Origin: a virus
Lineage: Duplodnaviria; Heunggongvirae; Uroviricota; Caudoviricetes
IMG/VR virus record: IMGVR_UViG_2740892426_000005
Reading direction: 5' to 3' (one strand)
DNA: 38,007 nt
Both the position numbers and the translations under genes were made by a program. How positions within the stretch are numbered: position 1 is the stretch's first letter; every line of letters begins with the position of its first letter. Under the pieces are notes generated by a model. It saw nothing but the letters and a program-made list of their open reading frames with translations. It searched no databases and had not been told where the DNA came from. This document shows, piece after piece, positions 7,616 to 37,073 of the stretch.

Positions 7616-7804
7616 ATGCAGGACTATTTTTTGGAGTCTTTGAAGCTCCAGCGCATTGATTTTTTTCTTAAGCTTGTAGCGGCTAGTGAGTGTAGTGATG
7701 AAGAGAAGGGGCTGGCTCTGCAGTGGGTTTCTGAACTGACAGATGAACTCATGGCAAAAATCAGAACCCACGAATACAACCGCTCAATGGATGTCATCAG
7801 CTGA
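7616..7804 (+). CDS. small SOS-controlled protein (62 aa), possible Tum-like antirepressor module
   Basis: AGGAGG RBS 5 nt upstream of ATG; directly downstream of the LexA box; 186 places its LexA-controlled tum operon at this position. Function is inferred by position only. Confidence 0.45.
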   Translation: MQDYFLESLKLQRIDFFLKLVAASECSDEEKGLALQWVSELTDELMAKIRTHEYNRSMDVIS

Positions 7805-7814
7805 GGTGACTTTT

Positions 7815-8048
7815 ATGCGCATTGAAATAATGATCGATAAAGAGCAGAAGATTAGCCAGTCTACACTGGACGCCCTTGAATCCGAGCTTTACCGCAATCT
7901 GCGCCCCCTGTATCCCAAAACGGTAATCCGTATCCGTAAAGGTAGCTCTAACGGTGTGGAACTGACCGGACTGCAACCGGACGAAGAAAGAAAACAAGTG
8001 ATGAAAATTATGCAGAAGGTGTGGGAAGACGACAGCTGGCTGCATTAA
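7815..8048 (+). CDS. dinI: DinI-family protein (77 aa)
   Basis: MRIEIMIDKEQ... start and ...MQKVWEDDSWLH C-terminus resemble DinI (MRIEV... and acidic W-containing C-terminus); GAGGTGA RBS overlapping the upstream stop. Confidence 0.7.
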   Translation: MRIEIMIDKEQKISQSTLDALESELYRNLRPLYPKTVIRIRKGSSNGVELTGLQPDEERKQVMKIMQKVWEDDSWLH

Positions 8049-15179: not shown

Positions 15180-15197
15180 TGTGTGGTTGTCGGTACA
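15180..15197. promoter_or_regulatory. Ogr-type late activator site TGT-N12-ACA in the P/O divergent region
   Basis: TGTGTGGTTGTCGGTACA read directly; P2 late promoters carry TGT-N12-ACA dyads upstream. Confidence 0.5.
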
Positions 15198-20249: not shown

Positions 20250-20643
20250 AGCGGTGCCTTATGTCCGCAATAACCCGGACAAACTGCATCTGTTTGTGGA
20301 TAACGGTTCGCTGGTTGCCACGGGGGCCAGCTCCATGTCGTGGGAGTACCGTTACACCCTGAACGCGGTGATTGAGGATTTCAGCGGCGACCAGAATCTG
20401 CTGATGGCCCCGGTTTTGCTGTGGCTGAGGGATAACCAGCCCGATGCAATCAATAACCCGGTGTTACGGGAAAAGTTATTCACCTTTGAGGTGGATATTT
20501 TGCGCAACGATGTCTGTGATATCAGCCTTAACCTGCAACTGACGGAACGTGTGCTGGTCAGCACTGACGGCACTGTGTCCAGCGTTGAAGCTGTAGCGGA
20601 ACCCGATGAACCTGAAGAAATGTGGACGGTGAAACGTGGCTGA
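20212..20643 (+). CDS. R: tail completion protein R (143 aa)
   Basis: GTG start with AGGAG 8 nt upstream (the ORF-track start at 20191 is TTG); P2 gpR-like position. Confidence 0.75.
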   Translation: MNKPQSLRHALNKAVPYVRNNPDKLHLFVDNGSLVATGASSMSWEYRYTLNAVIEDFSGDQNLLMAPVLLWLRDNQPDAINNPVLREKLFTFEVDILRNDVCDISLNLQLTERVLVSTDGTVSSVEAVAEPDEPEEMWTVKRG

Positions 20644-21082
20644 ACTGCAGAAGGTGGACGACTGGCTGAGTGCTTTGCTGGCGAATCTGGAACCAGCCGC
20701 AAGAAGCCGCATGATGCGCCAGCTGGCGCAGGAACTGCGCCGGACACAACAGCAGAATATCAGAATGCAGCGCAACCCTGACGGCAGCAGCTATGAACCT
20801 CGACGGGTAACAGCACGCAGTAAAAAGGGGCGCATCAAACGTCAGATGTTTGCAAAGCTGCGCACCACAAAATACCTGAAAACTGCAGCCAGCGCCGATT
20901 CTGCCAGCGTGCAGTTTGAAGGTAAGGTGCAGCGCATTGCCCGTGTTCACCATTACGGCCTCCGTGATCGCGTCAGTCGCAAAGGACCGGAGGTCCGCTA
21001 TGCAGAGCGCCGCCTGTTGGGTCTTAATGGTGAGTCTTATGTTCTAACTCTTGATATATTGAATAGATTCCTTCTGTCTTGA
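20636..21082 (+). CDS. S: tail completion protein S (148 aa); last ~19 codons lie in AT-rich inserted DNA
   Basis: GTG start overlapping R stop; P2 gpS-like size; 3' end overlaps the convergent membrane-protein gene by 59 nt. Confidence 0.75.
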   Translation: MAELQKVDDWLSALLANLEPAARSRMMRQLAQELRRTQQQNIRMQRNPDGSSYEPRRVTARSKKGRIKRQMFAKLRTTKYLKTAASADSASVQFEGKVQRIARVHHYGLRDRVSRKGPEVRYAERRLLGLNGESYVLTLDILNRFLLS

Positions 21083-21830
21083 ATTCACCATATGCCCAAT
21101 GAATTGCATTTTTTTGTTCAGTTAGAATATATTTCCTAACTTTTTTAGAATAGTGAATGGTCAGTATAAAACCCAAAGAAATCCATAATAGAATAAATAT
21201 AGTTGTTGGGGCAAAGGAATAGATAAAAAATTTGTCTTTAACGAAATTCTTGACTTCTTCATCAATGTAAGCATTCCCTTCATCAGTGGTTAGTAGTTTA
21301 CAAAGAATTTCTTTATGTTCGATAGTTAATGATTTGTACTTCTCTGTACTGGCAGAGGATGACTCTTCGCAATCATCCTTTGATATTTCCCAATCAGGAG
21401 TGGTTAATATTGTAGCTGCAGTCGCCATTTTTTTTGACATATAAAATGATTCACCGGACTTTATCCAATAAAGCAATGTGCTATTTGGTGGGGTTCTAAT
21501 GGCTTGGATGAAAACTGGACCAAAAAGATAAATTGCACACAAAAAAAGAAGCGAAAATAGAACCGTGATTGATTTTTCAGCCCATGTGATAGTAGGCAGC
21601 TTTTTTAATGATATTTTTATAAGAAAAAAATTTAATATAAACGCAGGTATTCCTGATTTTTTCAAAATTACATCATGAGATTTTCTATATTTGAATAGTG
21701 CTCTTATAACTATCGTCACCAAAGTTATAACAGCTCCAATAATGGAAATCCATGCGGCAAGTGCCGCTGCCGGGGTGTTTAAAAATTCAGCATTAAATAT
21801 ATTAGAACTTATTGGATTCATAACACTCAT
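21024..21830 (-). CDS. accessory membrane protein (268 aa, about 3 TM helices), AT-rich insertion between S and V
   Basis: AGGTGG RBS before ATG 21830; hydrophobic segments at about residues 20-44, 86-108 and 201-224; AT-rich by eye; this is the position of the nonessential orf30 in P2. Confidence 0.6.
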   Translation of the reverse strand: MSVMNPISSNIFNAEFLNTPAAALAAWISIIGAVITLVTIVIRALFKYRKSHDVILKKSGIPAFILNFFLIKISLKKLPTITWAEKSITVLFSLLFLCAIYLFGPVFIQAIRTPPNSTLLYWIKSGESFYMSKKMATAATILTTPDWEISKDDCEESSSASTEKYKSLTIEHKEILCKLLTTDEGNAYIDEEVKNFVKDKFFIYSFAPTTIFILLWISLGFILTIHYSKKVRKYILTEQKNAIHWAYGEFKTEGIYSIYQELEHKTHH

Positions 21831-21869
21831 TTATCCACCTATTGGTTGTTTTTTATCCTTTTGTCAATT

Positions 21870-21887
21870 TGTACCATCGATACCACA
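21870..21887 (+). promoter_or_regulatory. Ogr-type late activator site TGT-N12-ACA upstream of V
   Basis: TGTACCATCGATACCACA, ending 46 nt before the V start codon. Confidence 0.5.
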
Positions 21888-21933
21888 ATTTGCAAGAAGT
21901 TATAAACAAGTTTTCATCTGTCATCATATATCT

Positions 21934-22512
21934 ATGAACGCACAATTAACCGAAATCATGCGCCTTATCACCAATCTGATCCGCACAGGTGTAGTCACCG
22001 AAGTGGACCGGGAAAACTGGCTTTGTCGGGTGAAAACGGGCGACCTTGAAACCAACTGGATTAACTGGCTGACGCTGCGCGCGGGTAATGCCCGCACATG
22101 GTGGAAACCATCGGAAGGTGAGCAGGTGGTGCTGCTGAGTCTGGGCGGCAATCTGGAGACTGCCTTTGCGTTGCCCGCCATCTATTCGAATCAGTTCGCT
22201 CCACCGTCGACGTCGGCGGACGCCTGCGTGACAGAACATCCTGACGGCGGCTGGTTTGAATATGAACCCGCCACCGGGCGCTGGTATGTCAGGGGCATCA
22301 AATCAATGGTCATTGAGGCCGCTGACAACATCACCATGAAAACCAGTGAGTTTGTACTGGAGGCTGACCGCACGCGCATTAACAGCGAAGTGGTGATCAA
22401 TGGTGGCGTTACCCAGGGCGGCGGAGCGATGAGTTCTAACGGGATCGTGGTTGATGCGCATCAGCATACTGGCGTCCTGAAAGGCGGCGATACAACCGGA
22501 GGCCCGGTATGA
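21934..22512 (+). CDS. V: baseplate spike/assembly protein V (192 aa)
   Basis: P2 gpV-like; start at ATG 21934 (the ORF-track upstream extension reads through the promoter region). Confidence 0.85.
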   Translation: MNAQLTEIMRLITNLIRTGVVTEVDRENWLCRVKTGDLETNWINWLTLRAGNARTWWKPSEGEQVVLLSLGGNLETAFALPAIYSNQFAPPSTSADACVTEHPDGGWFEYEPATGRWYVRGIKSMVIEAADNITMKTSEFVLEADRTRINSEVVINGGVTQGGGAMSSNGIVVDAHQHTGVLKGGDTTGGPV

Positions 22513-25863: not shown

Positions 25864-26456
25864 TGAAACCTGTTTTTGATGAAAATGGGCTGGCTACAGT
25901 GCCGGGCGATATGCGTTGTTTTTATTATAATGCAGTAACGTATGAATATACCGGCTGGTCTGATGAATATATTAATACTGGCGTAAGTATGCCCGCCTGT
26001 TCCACTGGTATTGACCCGAGCGAAAACATTCCGGGAAAAGTGGCAGTATTTACGGGTAAGGGATGGAGCCATGAAGAAGACCATCGCAATGAGACCGTTT
26101 ACTCAACTGAAAATGGCGCAGCTGTTACAGTGGATTATATCGGTGCCATCAAAGACGGTTATGTCACGCTTTCACCGTTAACGCCATACGATAAATGGGA
26201 TGGTGAGAAATGGGTGACGGATACCGAGGCACAGCATAGCGCCGCAGTAGAAGCGGCAGAAGCACAGCGCCAGTCGCTGATTGATGCTGCAATGGCTTCC
26301 ATCAGTCTGATTCAACTGAAATTACAGGCCGGGCGGAAGCTGACGCAGCCAGAAAACACCCGACTTAACGCTGTGCTGGATTATATTGACGCGGTGACGG
26401 CAACAGATACCAGCACAGCGCCGGACGTCATCTGGCCTGAACTGCCGGAGGCGTAG
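25863..26456 (+). CDS. G: tail fibre assembly protein (197 aa), currently expressed orientation
   Basis: Tfa-like; 1-nt overlap with H stop. Confidence 0.8.
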   Translation: MKPVFDENGLATVPGDMRCFYYNAVTYEYTGWSDEYINTGVSMPACSTGIDPSENIPGKVAVFTGKGWSHEEDHRNETVYSTENGAAVTVDYIGAIKDGYVTLSPLTPYDKWDGEKWVTDTEAQHSAAVEAAEAQRQSLIDAAMASISLIQLKLQAGRKLTQPENTRLNAVLDYIDAVTATDTSTAPDVIWPELPEA

Positions 26457-26868
26457 GCCATTCAATATCTGGCGCACCGGAAGTATCGACCAGCTCCAGT
26501 GCGTCCAGATAATCCAGCCACAAATTATATTGCGCCAGTTCCTCACCTTTCAGGCGACCAATCGCCGCTTTACCAGGCCATTGCTTACTGTTTATGTATT
26601 CGTTGACCTGATTAATCAATTGCTGCTTTTCCAGTTCGGCTGCGGCAATTTGTTCCTCATGAGTTGGCGGTGGAATATCAATCCATGCAGGCATTCCGTC
26701 GATGACACCTCTGTATTTTCCTTCTGGTGCTTCCTTCATAAATTCGGCGGCAACAGTGTCGTCAATTTCGATTCCATCACCGGGCCATTCGCCGGATTCC
26801 TGATAAGCGATTTTAAGCTCCACAGGGAAAAACGCATTTTTATCGGCACTGAAAATATATTTCTGCAT
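26428..26868 (-). CDS. alternative tail fibre assembly protein (146 aa), silent orientation
   Basis: Tfa-like on the opposite strand inside the invertible segment; convergent 29-nt overlap with G. Confidence 0.75.
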   Translation of the reverse strand: MQKYIFSADKNAFFPVELKIAYQESGEWPGDGIEIDDTVAAEFMKEAPEGKYRGVIDGMPAWIDIPPPTHEEQIAAAELEKQQLINQVNEYINSKQWPGKAAIGRLKGEELAQYNLWLDYLDALELVDTSGAPDIEWPTPPAVQAR

Positions 26869-26870
26869 TT

Positions 26871-27227
26871 CTACCGTCCTATCGAAATATAACTGAATCT
26901 GTATTGCTGTGAGATATCACTGGTTGCCACACGCCACGCTGAATTACTGATATGTTCAAAATTTACAGACAAAACCTGCAGGGCAGGATTCGACGGGTCT
27001 GACTGAACGGCATCAGACATAACACTGACTGAAACCATCGGCTGATTAGGGAATGGTATAGGGAAGTGTCCACTGATAAAGCGGGTCGTGTTTCCTGAAA
27101 AAGTGCCAAACTGAACAATATATCCACCTGGTAGCCTGAACCATCCCGAACCAGAAGCGAATGCTCCCATATCCGGTATCTGATTATCTCCTGTGCCCAC
27201 ATCCCTTTTCGCCGCTTCTCCTAAACC
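26871..27227 (-). CDS. promoterless alternative tail-fibre C-terminal cassette (about 118 aa), fused to H only after inversion
   Basis: Minus-strand reading from site 2 begins GLGEAAKRD..., matching the GLGEG... junction of the current H; the ORF-track start at 27269 lies beyond the crossover site and is not a real start. Confidence 0.65.
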   Translation of the reverse strand, partial: GLGEAAKRDVGTGDNQIPDMGAFASGSGWFRLPGGYIVQFGTFSGNTTRFISGHFPIPFPNQPMVSVSVMSDAVQSDPSNPALQVLSVNFEHISNSAWRVATSDISQQYRFSYISIGR

Positions 27228-27241
27228 AACGTTTAAGAAAA
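27216..27241. repeat. cix/gix/hix-like inversion site 2 (TTCTCCTAAACC-AA-CGTTTAAGAAAA)
   Basis: Reverse complement TTTTCTTAAACG-TT-GGTTTAGGAGAA matches site 1 in 10/12 right-arm positions with the same central TT; about 55 nt upstream of the invertase gene. Confidence 0.6.
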
Positions 27242-27296
27242 TGCAGCGATTACGACTAACTGGCATCATCCCCGATTTTTATTCAAGGAGATGATC

Positions 27297-27863
27297 ATGC
27301 TTATTGGCTATGTACGCGTGTCAACAAATGACCAGAACACCGATTTGCAACGTAGTGCGCTGAACTGCGCGGGATGTGAGCGGATTTTTGAGGATAAAAT
27401 CAGCGGCACTAAGTCCGACAGACCGGGGCTGAAAAAACTGCTCAGGACACTATCGGCAGGTGACACACTGGTTGTCTGGAAGCTGGACAGGTTGGGGCGC
27501 AGTATGCGGCATCTTGTTACGCTGATAGAAGAGTTACGCCAGCGTGGTGTGAATTTCAGAAGCCTGACTGACAGTATTGATACCAGTACCCCAATGGGCC
27601 GTTTCTTTTTTCATGTCATGGGTGCCCTGGCTGAAATGGAACGCGAACTGATAGTTGAACGTACCAGGGCAGGGCTGGCTGCAGCTCGCGCCAAAGGCAG
27701 AGTAGGTGGACGCCGTCCTAAGTTGACCACCGAACAGTGGGCACAGATTGGGCGTTTACTCGAGGCCGGAGAATCAAGACAGCGTATTGCACTGATTTTT
27801 GATGTAGGCGTTTCTACCATTTATAGAAAATTTCCGGCAAATAAGATCAATGAATCCTCCTGA
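27297..27863 (+). CDS. serine DNA invertase, Hin/Gin/Cin/Pin family (188 aa)
   Basis: MLIGYVRVSTNDQNTDLQRSAL N-terminus (catalytic Ser), C-terminal HTH; start at the third Met (ATG 27297), which has AAGGAG 6 nt upstream. Confidence 0.9.
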   Translation: MLIGYVRVSTNDQNTDLQRSALNCAGCERIFEDKISGTKSDRPGLKKLLRTLSAGDTLVVWKLDRLGRSMRHLVTLIEELRQRGVNFRSLTDSIDTSTPMGRFFFHVMGALAEMERELIVERTRAGLAAARAKGRVGGRRPKLTTEQWAQIGRLLEAGESRQRIALIFDVGVSTIYRKFPANKINESS

Positions 27864-27911: not shown

Positions 27912-27929
27912 TGTGTGAATAACGACACA
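27912..27929 (+). promoter_or_regulatory. Ogr-type late activator site TGT-N12-ACA upstream of FI
   Basis: TGTGTGAATAACGACACA, ending 76 nt before the FI start codon. Confidence 0.5.
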
Positions 27930-35387: not shown

Positions 35388-37073
35388 TTATCCTAATCCT
35401 GGCCATACCATGACGATGATTGTCCCTGCCAGCGTCAGCAGGACGTTGGCGATTGCATAGGTGCCCGCATAGCCCAGCGCCGGGATGTTACTGCGAGCTG
35501 TATCACTGATGATCTCCATTGCCGGCGCGCAGGTGCGTGCGCCCATCATTGCGCCGAACAACAGTGCGCGGTTCATTCGCAATACATAAGCACCGAACAA
35601 GAAACAGATAACCACTGGCACAAGACTGACAATCAATCCGGCAATCAACATCTGACCGCCAATCGCGCCCAGGCCGTTATTAATACCGCTACCGGCGCTC
35701 AGACCAACGCCTGCCATAAACACCATTAAGCCGAACTCTTTCACCATGCTTAATGCACCCTGCGGAATGTAACCGAAGGTCGGGTGGTTAGCGCGCATAA
35801 ATCCCAGCATAATTCCGGCGAATAACAACCCGGCAGCGTTCCCCATGCCGAAACTGAATGTGCTGAACTGGAAGGTGATCATCCCGATCATCAGCCCAAT
35901 AACAAAGAAGGCGCAGAATGCCAGCAAGTCAGTGACCTGGCTGTGAATCGAGATAAAGCCGATGCGATCGGCGATGGTTTTTACGCGACGGGCATCGCCG
36001 CTGACTTGTAAAACGTCACCTTTGTTAAGCACGACGTTGTCATCTATCGGCATCTCAATCTGGCTACGAATGACGCGGTTAAGGAAGCAACCGTGATCGG
36101 TCAACTTCAGTTGTGCGAGACGTTTGCCCACGGCGTTATGGTTTTTAACGACCACTTCTTCAGTGACGATACGCATGTCGAGAAGGTCACGATCGAAAAC
36201 TTCTTTGCCGTTACGGAAGCTGGGATCGAGTCGTGCGTGGGCGTCGGGATAGCCTACCAACGCTATTTCATCGCCCATTTGTAGCACAGCATCACCGTCT
36301 GGATTCGCCAGAATCCCGTTACGTCGAATACGTTCAATGTAGCAGCCAGTTTGTCGATAAATACCCAGTTCACGCAGATTTTTGCCGTCGGTCCAGGCCA
36401 CCAGCTCCGGGCCGACGCGGTAGGCGCGGATCACCGGTAAATAAACCTTACGGTTGGCATCAGTGTCCAGGCCACGTTCGCGGGCGATTTGCTGGGCGCT
36501 GGTCTGTAAGTCCTGATGCTGCAATTTCGGCAAGTAACGCGCACCAACAATCAAACTCACCAGACCGATTAAATAGGTTAAGGCATACCCGAGGCTCAGA
36601 TTATCCAGTGCCAGTGAGAGCTGCCTGCTTTCCATGCCGGAATGACGCAGTGTATCGCCAGCACCGACCAGAACCGGTGTCGACGTCATAGAGCCAGCTA
36701 ACATACCGGCCGTCAGGCCAATATCCCAGCCAAACAGCTTACCTAACCCTAAGGCGATCACCAGCGCACTGCCAACCATCACCAGTGCTAACATTAGGTA
36801 ATTTTTCCCATCGCGAAAAAAAATGGAAAAAAAGTTCGGTCCGGCTTCGACCCCGACGCAGAAAATAAACAGCATAAAGCCAAGATTAAGCGCGTCGGTG
36901 TTAATGCTGAAATGTTGTTGGCCTAATAACAGCGATACGACTAAAACGCCAATGGAATTACCCAGTTGGATCGAACCAAGTCGTAATTTCCCGAGACATA
37001 GCCCAAGCGCGAGGACCACAAATAATAACAGAATGTAATTCCCATTTAACAATTCGGCGACGTTTATATTCAC
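35388..37073 (-). CDS. ybjL: YbjL-type putative transporter (561 aa), host gene
   Basis: Recognised as E. coli YbjL by length and sequence character (two multi-TM halves with central TrkA-C-like domains); from memory. Confidence 0.8.

Follow-up and report, generated by a model that had tools for sequence, protein, structure and literature searches.

Which role could be played by a membrane protein that a P2-like prophage encodes in AT-rich DNA between two of its tail genes, antisense to the late operon, and why should its reading frame run into the end of one of them? The locus belongs to a window of 38,007 nt, which is the whole stretch of DNA analysed here (IMG/VR record IMGVR_UViG_2740892426_000005). 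A first-pass annotation, made from the sequence alone, had described the gene as a moron with a plausible promoter of its own and had named superinfection exclusion and abortive infection as candidate functions.

A DUF6216 gene at the S/V junction

The minus-strand ORF (268 aa, ATG start) appears in the ORF list between the tail genes S and V (Table 1), and the computed composition bears out the AT-rich insertion noticed at first, with a GC content of 0.285–0.37 over about 21000–21950 vs 0.55–0.61 on either side (0.32 for the coding sequence itself vs about 0.57 in the flanks). In an alignment to the Klebsiella phage 4LV2017, where the site is empty, homology stops at about 21030 and restarts at about 21932, so that about 0.9 kb of AT-rich DNA stands in place of 125 nt, made up of the S tail and a spacer of 68 nt. 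A transposon-like insertion was considered and rejected, there being no repeats at the module boundaries.

Table 1. Features of the S/V junction, with positions in the window.
Feature	Position	Strand	Basis
Tail completion / virion morphogenesis gene S, 148 aa	20636..21082	+	Pfam Phage_tail_S, E 5.7e-40, residues 3-146
Antisense dual-coding segment, 59 nt	21024..21082	both	Last 19 codons + stop of S and of DUF6216
DUF6216-family predicted inner-membrane protein CDS, 268 aa	21024..21830	-	ORF, Pfam, RefSeq, dN/dS, hydropathy, AF2 models
AT-rich variable module: S tail, antisense DUF6216 gene, AT-rich V promoter region	21031..21932	.	Composition; empty-site alignment
Shine-Dalgarno AGGTGG, 4 nt before DUF6216 ATG	21835..21840	-	Sequence
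TGT-N12-ACA dyad, likely Ogr-type activator site of late V promoter	21870..21887	.	Sequence, 4LV2017 and P2 geometry
Baseplate spike gene V, right-hand bound of cargo site	21934..22512	+	Pfam Phage_base_V + GpV Apex motif; RefSeq

The annotation had recognised no family, a statement that has to be corrected. The protein matches the Pfam family DUF6216 (PF19723) with 49.7 bits against a gathering cut-off of 27.3 (E 4e-13), residues 71–237 falling on profile positions 113–265 of 270, and RefSeq lists it under the name "DUF6216 family protein" (WP_021522007.1 is one such record). All 20 relatives scanned (alignment A4) match PF19723 as well. Because the profile match is partial and the best E-value among those relatives is about 1e-13, the window protein belongs to a peripheral subfamily of DUF6216. 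The whole family counts about 50 representatives among 1.84 billion proteins and is confined to a few Enterobacterales lineages. One copy (ECD_RS04470, WP_000115390.1), 97% identical to the window protein, is carried by BL21(DE3) in a defective P2-like prophage, at the same rcdA(ybjK)/ybjL integration site and with the same overlap with S.

Low GC content, homologues that are all uncharacterised and a weak promoter match (see below) could point to a chance ORF in functionless AT-rich DNA, a reading to which we attach next to no probability. Pairwise dN/dS is 0.11–0.33, which is why the ORF is counted as a real gene under purifying selection, and the unsaturated pairs fall within that range (0.24 at a dS of 0.41 between the window and L009, 0.19 between the window and L007, and 0.15 between L003 and L013). 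Selection spans the entire length of the protein, the ribosome-binding site is strong, and full-length homologues down to 20% identity keep both the architecture and the invariant cysteines. Together, these distant homologues, the dN/dS values and the Pfam match above threshold effectively refute a chance ORF.

Other searches with the window protein gave no lead to a function or a fold. No PADLOC-DB v2 family was matched at E-values up to 1, no PHROG below 0.1, so that no similarity to a characterised superinfection exclusion family (P22 SieA, T4 Imm/Sp, and others) was seen, and no NCBIfam model below 0.01; the 20 relatives had no PHROG match below 1e-3. A profile search of PDB sequences and Foldseek against viral structures (nothing at E below 0.3) gave no fold match, and a literature search by accession number retrieved nothing on the gene. 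Likewise, no hit was obtained by tblastn for the window protein or for P0035 in the deposited phage genomes (50,697 records). This absence, together with the lack of the gene in the closest relatives and its antisense orientation, led us to reject a P2 virion structural protein and agrees with the non-structural moron originally proposed.

S/V had also been taken for a cargo site, which the relatives bear out. An empty junction of 66–68 nt is present in 4LV2017, WPhi, PSP3, Fels-2, and 500465-1; in P2 the place is taken by orf30 and in R18C by an unrelated ORF. This last one (ORF16, 246 aa) was considered as a short form of DUF6216 and discarded, being a sense-strand, soluble, and unrelated product with faint HNH matches. 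As with the cargo of the old/tin and Z/fun sites and with R18C ORF16, the DUF6216 gene is AT-rich accessory DNA at a fixed junction of conserved phage genes and absent from close relatives. The old/tin hotspot of Rousset et al. is a separate locus, occupied in the window by a KAP NTPase and a RES-domain protein, and among the three P2 moron sites S/V has been studied least. The DUF6216 gene lies antisense at S/V in 19/19 IMG/VR loci (V and S are only fragments in two, and one has no S match) and in every intact P2-like context examined, and even a relative only about 20% identical is antisense at S/V and overlaps S. Among 5426 complete E. coli genomes, 111 contain identical or nearly identical DUF6216 DNA and 1049 have this V type. 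The gene is the commonest recognisable S/V occupant in E. coli, found in about 10% of the prophages whose V is of this type. In the window, the prophage that carries this moron at its S/V hotspot is complete, P2/186-like, and integrated next to ybjL.

Overlap with S and expression signals

The coordinates confirm the 59-nt overlap with the last about 19 codons of S that the annotation had reported. S is 90% identical to its 4LV2017 counterpart, diverging only past residue 129, and its last ~17–19 codons fall inside the AT-rich module. An S C-terminus encoded by foreign-looking DNA had been proposed, and that description stands as regards the location; however, this tail fits the family-wide S-tail pattern at the same length, for which reason it is a diverged, AT-shifted true S tail that travels with the cargo. 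The overlap shows the 3' end of S to be part of an exchangeable module.

The same overlap recurs in BL21, in the 16 IMG/VR loci whose S is present or is cut only by the end of the locus, and in loci of Serratia and Buttiauxella, and both reading frames of the 59 nt are conserved. The C-terminal tail of the DUF6216 protein is an extension specific to its clade and was probably overprinted on S. The overlap would most likely have originated by lengthening of the ORF across the 3' end of S, and it would now form a physical link between the moron and S, an essential tail gene. The DUF6216 tail is still conserved in three loci where S and the lysis genes are lost (L006, L010, and L011), and because the moron reading stays conserved after loss of the tail gene, this conserved segment, shared by a moron and an essential gene, offers a clean example of overprinting in nature, whatever the function.

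Regarding expression, the strong ribosome-binding site previously noted is indeed there, and so is a dyad that is likely the Ogr-type site assigned to the V promoter. The dyad stops 46 nt short of the V ATG at 21934 (47 nt for a dyad in 4LV2017), and its centre is 55.5 nt from this ATG, the geometry of the annotated pV activator site of P2, whose centre lies 55.5 nt from a TSS annotated at the V ATG itself. The own promoter described as plausible fared worse, since the candidate is a weak consensus match (TTGCAA-16-TACAAA), with a -10 that overlaps the Ogr-type dyad on the minus strand, and shuffled sequence gives promoter-like matches at least as often as this region, with no convincing sigma-70 promoter. 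As the gene points against the late operons, it would be made in the lysogen from this weak promoter of its own. According to a preprint, the BL21 copy shows H-NS ChIP peaks and derepression and is silenced by H-NS/StpA, from which low expression under laboratory conditions follows.

The arrangement could also be read as serving the phage's own cycle, or as acting through RNA: the antisense transcript would damp leaky or incoming late genes, or else the protein would modulate lysis timing. There is no terminator-like site in 20500–22300, hence none between S and the moron, and a transcript could continue as antisense RNA into S, R, and the lysis genes; moreover, an antisense RNA against late genes is how the Salmonella prophage BTP1 excludes its own kind. 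The conserved antisense overlap, the candidate -10 sharing bases with the Ogr-type dyad, and a lambdoid relative that has the gene just upstream of the holin also fit. Nevertheless, we think this very unlikely, given that purifying selection acts on the protein along its whole length, that loss of S and the lysis genes leaves both gene and C-terminal tail conserved, and that close relatives lack the gene altogether. No Rfam family was matched either, and a hidden RNA gene was rejected.

Predicted architecture, divergence and similarity to known proteins

The membrane protein with about three TM helices described at first was borne out by hydropathy, which gives strong hydrophobic segments at about residues 22–44, 87–109, and 205–227, plus a weaker one at 60–75. 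Three TM segments (four in one case) were found in 12 of the 13 family members tested, TM1 being below threshold in the remaining one. The positive-inside count puts the N-terminus and the loop 110–204 outside. The predicted topology consists of a periplasmic N-terminus, TM1, a basic cytoplasmic loop, TM2, a ~95-aa periplasmic domain (about 110–204), and TM3, followed by a C-terminus (228–268) predicted to comprise a basic helix in the cytoplasm and then a tail of 22 aa. In alignment A4, only F129, C154, and C177 are invariant. The two cysteines are spaced 22–23 residues across the family and could form a disulfide stabilising the putative periplasmic domain, both topology and disulfide being predictions from hydropathy and conservation.

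Divergence is uneven along the protein, the periplasmic domain and TM2/TM3 being the parts that change fastest. Between the window protein and P0030, identity is 34%, 22%, and 30% in these parts, vs 90% at the N-terminus and about 70% at the C-terminus. Where the DUF6216 protein keeps only 50% identity, the flanking S, V, R, and W keep 82–84%.

Two known phage proteins share part of this architecture. The nonessential P2 Orf30 (NP_046770.1) is encoded at the same site and also antisense, has nearly the same length (261 vs 268 aa), and shows three TM segments, with a TM2–TM3 loop that likewise contains two invariant cysteines. Aligned with hhalign, both cysteines and a C-[KN]-x-LL...E-[IV]-K motif coincide. 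The score is 32.7, while none of 60 block shuffles exceeded 27.9 and the reversed alignment reached 13.3, although the probability is only 27% (pairwise E 6.6e-4) and neither BLAST nor Pfam links Orf30 to DUF6216, so that Orf30 is at best a putative homologue. They differ in the cysteine spacing, 17 in Orf30 vs 22–23 in DUF6216, and in the relation to S, which Orf30 does not overlap, an annotated terminator lying between S and orf30 in P2. The second, P22 SieA, is also prophage-encoded, acts alone, and has three predicted TM helices, its inner-membrane location being experimental whereas that of the DUF6216 protein is predicted. Both come in very divergent types (<30% identical in SieA) with a conserved cytoplasmic C-terminal motif. 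SieA is nonetheless shorter (162–164 aa), lacks the ~95-aa periplasmic domain, and has no sequence relationship detected through PHROGs, and exclusion has been demonstrated for SieA whereas it is only a candidate function for DUF6216.

Candidate functions

The reading we favour, with a probability of about 0.35, is a candidate envelope-acting function for the lysogen, most likely superinfection exclusion. The step affected would be the crossing of the periplasm and the inner membrane by phage DNA or tail components on their way in; contact with the invader would fall to the variable periplasmic domain, and the conserved C-terminus would have a constant task in the cytoplasm. Favouring exclusion are the precedent of P22 SieA, a three-TM inner-membrane prophage protein with divergent types, the fast divergence of the exposed domain relative to the flanking genes, and the accessory nature of a gene found at mobile-element cargo sites. 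Counting against it, none of the defence and protein-family databases was matched at the E-values given above, the promoter match is weak, silencing by H-NS implies little expression in the laboratory, and in BL21 the hns/stpA deletions that derepress the gene left the plating of T5 and Gostya9 unchanged once the retron Eco1 had been removed, an indirect result that covers only T5-like phages.

Family members also occur at other cargo sites, namely a lambdoid Q-to-holin position, an AlpA island beside a GAAD/GASH/DO-GTPase system, and a MobA context. The gene is intact beside truncated or missing V, S, or R in K. aerogenes, Scandinavium, Serratia rubidaea, Citrobacter youngae, and C. sedlakii, and likewise in metagenomic prophage remnants at the ybjL/TetR(ybjK) site, a pattern that is partly one of ascertainment, as pseudogenes escape searches made on called proteins.

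Such persistence under purifying selection in prophage remnants of at least five genera could suggest a benefit to the lysogen that has nothing to do with phages, such as stress tolerance, immunity to colicins or tailocins, or envelope homeostasis. Immunity proteins to pore-forming colicins are small multi-TM inner-membrane proteins, which the DUF6216 protein resembles in being multi-TM, and the absence of a phage phenotype for T5-like phages in BL21 is also consistent with lysogenic conversion of this kind. We regard it as possible but rather unlikely, since every context is a site of mobile-element cargo or of defence type, a linked bacteriocin gene is absent, and the family, with its about 50 representatives, is restricted to a few lineages. 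An antagonistic interaction accounts better for how fast the exposed domain diverges relative to the flanking genes.

The other function initially proposed, a membrane-acting abortive-infection effector or toxin that stays latent until triggered by infection, with H-NS silencing protecting the host, appears improbable to us. TM proteins are common as suicide effectors in defence systems (PMC9122126), and the gene is AT-rich and H-NS-silenced, as is the toxic Eco1 effector of the same BL21 prophage. There are also faint holin-like matches to TM1, with PF16080 (HP1 family, E 0.032, TM1 only) and phrog_4237 (E 0.27); the former is below threshold (14.6 vs 28.8 bits), and a holin was discarded. 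The prophage already encodes an HP1-family holin of its own. The gene lacks a partner, as adjoining genes vary between contexts, and the persistence of the gene alone in many genomes and remnants argues against strong toxicity. In addition, a large conserved periplasmic domain with a disulfide, as predicted here, is atypical of a simple pore former.

Returning to exclusion, a broader and rather doubtful conjecture is that DUF6216 and P2 Orf30 form one ancient, fast-evolving family of inner-membrane exclusion proteins with a new periplasmic fold, which would be resident at S/V rather than random cargo, locked to S by the dual-coding overlap in one clade, and kept repeatedly by hosts after prophage decay at ybjK/ybjL. 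If true, a function would be gained both by P2 orf30, to which none has been assigned since the genome was sequenced, and by a silent gene of BL21. The presence of the gene in the laboratory strain BL21(DE3) makes its function directly testable. Should exclusion be its role, envelope defences that consist of a single gene would gain a further family, one whose periplasmic fold is unmatched, and it would be one more immunity hidden by H-NS silencing.

The AT-rich module between tail genes S and V

The first-pass annotation had described an AT-rich insertion between S and V holding a 268-aa antisense ORF, and this feature is real and correctly located. GC content falls to 0.29–0.37 across approximately positions 21000–21950, compared with 0.55–0.61 in both flanks, and is 0.32 in the coding sequence itself. 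The AGGTGG ribosome binding site (4 nt ahead of the ATG), the 59-nt overlap with the 3′ end of S and the proposed three or so transmembrane (TM) helices (three segments by hydropathy) were all recovered. The protein had been said to belong to no recognized family, which is wrong, as it scores 49.7 bits with Pfam DUF6216 (PF19723), whose cut-off is 27.3.

The window is a complete P2/186-like prophage, with integrase, CI-type repressor, gene A, late genes, and tail-fiber invertase, integrated beside ybjL. In its close relative, Klebsiella phage 4LV2017, the flanks are 95% identical and a spacer of 68 nt separates S from V; aligned with this phage, homology ends at ~21030 and restarts at ~21932, just ahead of the V ATG. 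The junction is likewise empty (66–68 nt) in WPhi, PSP3, Fels-2, and phage 500465-1, and in P2 it is occupied by the nonessential Orf30, so the gene had rightly been read as a moron at a P2 cargo site. Judged from these comparisons, the AT-rich stretch is a module of the insertion type; its junction is a known cargo site, listed in the literature among the three moron regions of P2 (PMC6823313). The "261-bp ORF30" of P2 in that paper is actually 261 aa. No boundary repeats were found at the module edges and no Rfam match within the module. Phage R18C carries at this junction a sense-strand ORF unrelated to DUF6216; its product (246 aa) is soluble and faintly matches HNH and Endonuclease I models (E about 0.01).

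The TGT-N12-ACA dyad preceding V lies inside the AT-rich DNA, so the module brings along a V promoter variant of its own. The dyad of 4LV2017 stands 47 nt ahead of its V ATG, and the annotated pV activator site of P2, where the transcription start is annotated at the V ATG, has the same geometry. The dyad center in the window, 55.5 nt from the ATG, matches that annotation of the V-operon start, and the V mRNA is probably leaderless. As for the promoter of its own that the moron was thought to have by the Ogr site of V, a candidate (TTGCAA-16-TACAAA) does overlap the dyad, but its match to consensus is weak. No terminator was found after the DUF6216 gene, and its transcript should therefore run antisense into S. 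We consider an RNA or phage-cycle role of the gene very unlikely; for the RNA reading, the BTP1 antisense RNA is a precedent.

Elsewhere in the window, genes for a KAP NTPase and a RES-domain protein, likely defense or toxin cargo, sit between the DinI-like gene and the portal gene, where P2 has its old/tin cos-proximal defense hotspot. The segment 26428–27863 looks like an invertible host-range switch.

Features of the window (whole-stretch positions) and of the compared loci
Feature	Position	Strand	Basis or remark
DinI-like gene	7743–8048		
KAP-family P-loop NTPase, 708 aa	8487–10613	+	
RES-domain protein, 338 aa	11270–12286	+	
TGT-N12-ACA dyad upstream of O	15180–15197		
S	20636–21082		Pfam Phage_tail_S, E 5.7e-40
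DUF6216 ORF, 268 aa, ATG start	21024–21830	-	ORF call
S/DUF6216 overlap, 59 nt	21024–21082	both	coordinates
TGT-N12-ACA dyad before V	21870–21887		ends 46 nt before V ATG
V	21934–22512		Pfam Phage_base_V + GpV Apex motif
Tail-fiber C-terminal and tail-fiber assembly ORFs, antisense	26428–26868, 26871–27269	-	
Hin/Gin-type serine invertase	27291–27863	+	
TGT-N12-ACA dyad upstream of FI	27912–27929		
Prophage abuts ybjL	35388–37073	-	
P2 Orf30, 261 aa (L046)	NC_001895 9439–10224	-	S/V junction
R18C S/V cargo (L051)	MN016939 9380–10120	sense	
BL21 locus with the defective P2-like prophage (L022)	BL21(DE3) 871342–890070		rcdA(ybjK)/ybjL site; carries retron Eco1

Protein architecture and the overlap with S

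The ORF is a real gene, and its architecture is consistent. Pairwise dN/dS values of the DUF6216 gene range from 0.11 to 0.33 (e.g., 0.24 at dS 0.41 and 0.19 at dS 0.79). Three TM segments were detected by hydropathy in the window protein and in all tested members but one, and the charge distribution would place the N-terminus and the 110–204 loop in the periplasm, leaving the 45–86 loop and the C-terminus cytoplasmic. The TM2–TM3 loop contains two cysteines 22–23 residues apart, and in the broad alignment no columns other than F129, C154, and C177 are invariant; such an invariant pair in a predicted periplasmic loop suggests a C154–C177 disulfide. In AF2 models of the whole protein (pLDDT 74) and of the loop domain (pLDDT 84) a small four-stranded sheet packs against helices, and neither model had a meaningful neighbor in the PDB or viral structure sets.

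P2 Orf30 shares site, strand and size class with the DUF6216 proteins, and likewise has three TM segments and a pair of invariant cysteines in the loop. Profile–profile alignment (hhalign) brought both cysteines into register with a score of 32.7 (pairwise E 6.6e-4, probability 27%). None of 60 block shuffles scored above 27.9 and the reversed alignment gave 13.3, which suggests that the two may be very remote homologs.

Most DUF6216 members are short (234–246 aa), ending at residue 246 of the window protein, and the 22-aa extension that spans the overlap is found only in the clade of the S/V junction, the long subfamily. Here G248, E249, F250, G254, Y256, Y259, E261, and L262 are invariant, and the tail is still conserved in remnants without S, one of which (L011) already holds a stop codon in the antisense S reading; by its conservation, the extension is functional for the membrane protein. 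The simplest reading is overprinting, in which the membrane-protein ORF would have grown into the DNA opposite the 3′ end of S. The two frames are paired such that a wobble position in either gene falls on a second codon position in its partner, and almost any change therefore affects one of the two proteins.

Among the S homologs listed, the 120 that score best share a C-terminal pattern of equal length, E-x-x-x-[LIMV]-T-[RLQ]-D-[ITV]-L-x-x-W-L-x-x, to which the module-linked tails ESYVLTLDILNRFLLS and ESIDLTLDILHRYLLP conform. The S C-terminus, previously taken as encoded by foreign-looking DNA, is indeed AT-shifted but is thus a genuine S tail. Many S homologs (P0090, P0104, P0115, P0117, and others; L023 4859–5314) have different AT-flavored tails that vary in length, among them KEQSFIFYTLISWLQEKGGLHK, NSYLIVSDLLMKWLTHR, and REIIKKIINSLVSFVMINNS. 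This suggests that exchange of the S/V cargo generally includes the 3′ end of S.

Distribution, genomic contexts and candidate function

The family is small, as only about 50 members were found when 1.84 billion representatives were searched exhaustively with a profile. Homologs of 262–268 aa form 32 clusters in Enterobacterales; no relatives were found in deposited phage genomes, and PADLOC, PHROG, and NCBIfam models gave no match to the protein. Module DNA is present at 95–100% identity in 111 of 5426 complete E. coli genomes, every match listed among these copies being annotated as "DUF6216 family protein." As the V type of the window occurs in 1049 genomes, the module is present in about a tenth of such prophages. 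Two of the 111 module copies, and nine copies of this V type, are plasmid-borne rather than chromosomal and may belong to P2-like phage-plasmids.

The association with mobile-element cargo sites is exclusive. In the long subfamily the gene is antisense at the S/V junction in all 19 IMG/VR loci (19/19), with identical spacing wherever V and S are intact, and a 296-aa member about 20% identical (P0061) occupies the same junction of another P2-like prophage, also antisense and overlapping S by 33 nt. Further members lie between Q/methylase and holin, a lambdoid cargo site, near a MobA relaxase, and in an AlpA island adjoining a GAAD/GASH/DO-GTPase system. In this AlpA/CP4-57-like island (L024/L025, 5045–8741) a short-form gene is directly upstream of Metallophos-GAAD, GASH, and DO-GTPase genes, a predicted conflict system.

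Several loci are remnants of prophages where the gene is intact beside truncated or missing neighbors, for instance in K. aerogenes, Scandinavium, Serratia rubidaea, Citrobacter youngae, C. sedlakii, and a metagenome bin. Members at 27–40% identity stand nearly by themselves between ybjL and ybjK, a TetR gene, which is the chromosomal site of the window prophage; one of them adjoins a fragment of a P2-type integrase. Remnants that have kept nothing but the DUF6216 gene occur at this site in several genera. Here ybjL is 91–96% identical and the membrane protein only 35–67%. These intact copies suggest repeated retention by the host, evidence that is suggestive rather than conclusive since the survey searched called proteins and is blind to decayed copies. 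That the protein is a fitness factor unrelated to phages we regard as unlikely. In the Scandinavium sp. remnant at the ybjL site (L006, 6257–8849), the intact DUF6216 gene comes after a GIY-YIG protein and before a CI-type repressor and an OLD/Gabija-like ATPase of 662 aa (AAA_15/AAA_21).

A copy 97% identical to the window protein, with the same 59-nt S overlap, is ECD_RS04470 of BL21(DE3), in the defective P2-like prophage that also holds Eco1. According to a 2026 preprint (10.64898/2026.09.05.749240), this gene carries an H-NS ChIP peak and is derepressed in an hns/stpA double mutant. T5-like phages were unaffected by derepression in BL21 after Eco1 removal.

Our best guess for the function, on circumstantial grounds, is superinfection exclusion at DNA entry. 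The predicted periplasmic domain diverges fast while the adjoining cytoplasmic parts are conserved, and divergence of the protein is far above that of neighboring structural genes. Envelope location, fast periplasmic domain, divergence, cargo-only contexts, and retention in remnants fit a lysogen-expressed protein that would meet something variable in the periplasm. The nearest functional analog is the superinfection-exclusion protein SieA of P22, an inner membrane protein with three TM helices, very divergent types, and a conserved cytoplasmic C-terminal motif, although without sequence relationship. The indifference of T5-like phages in BL21 counts against exclusion; an abortive-infection effector appears quite improbable. 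The gene belongs to a family that is catalogued yet uncharacterized, and a member is present in a well-known laboratory strain. As a candidate it is easy to test and worth the effort, given its conserved antisense interlock with S, its retention in prophage remnants and a possible link to P2 orf30.
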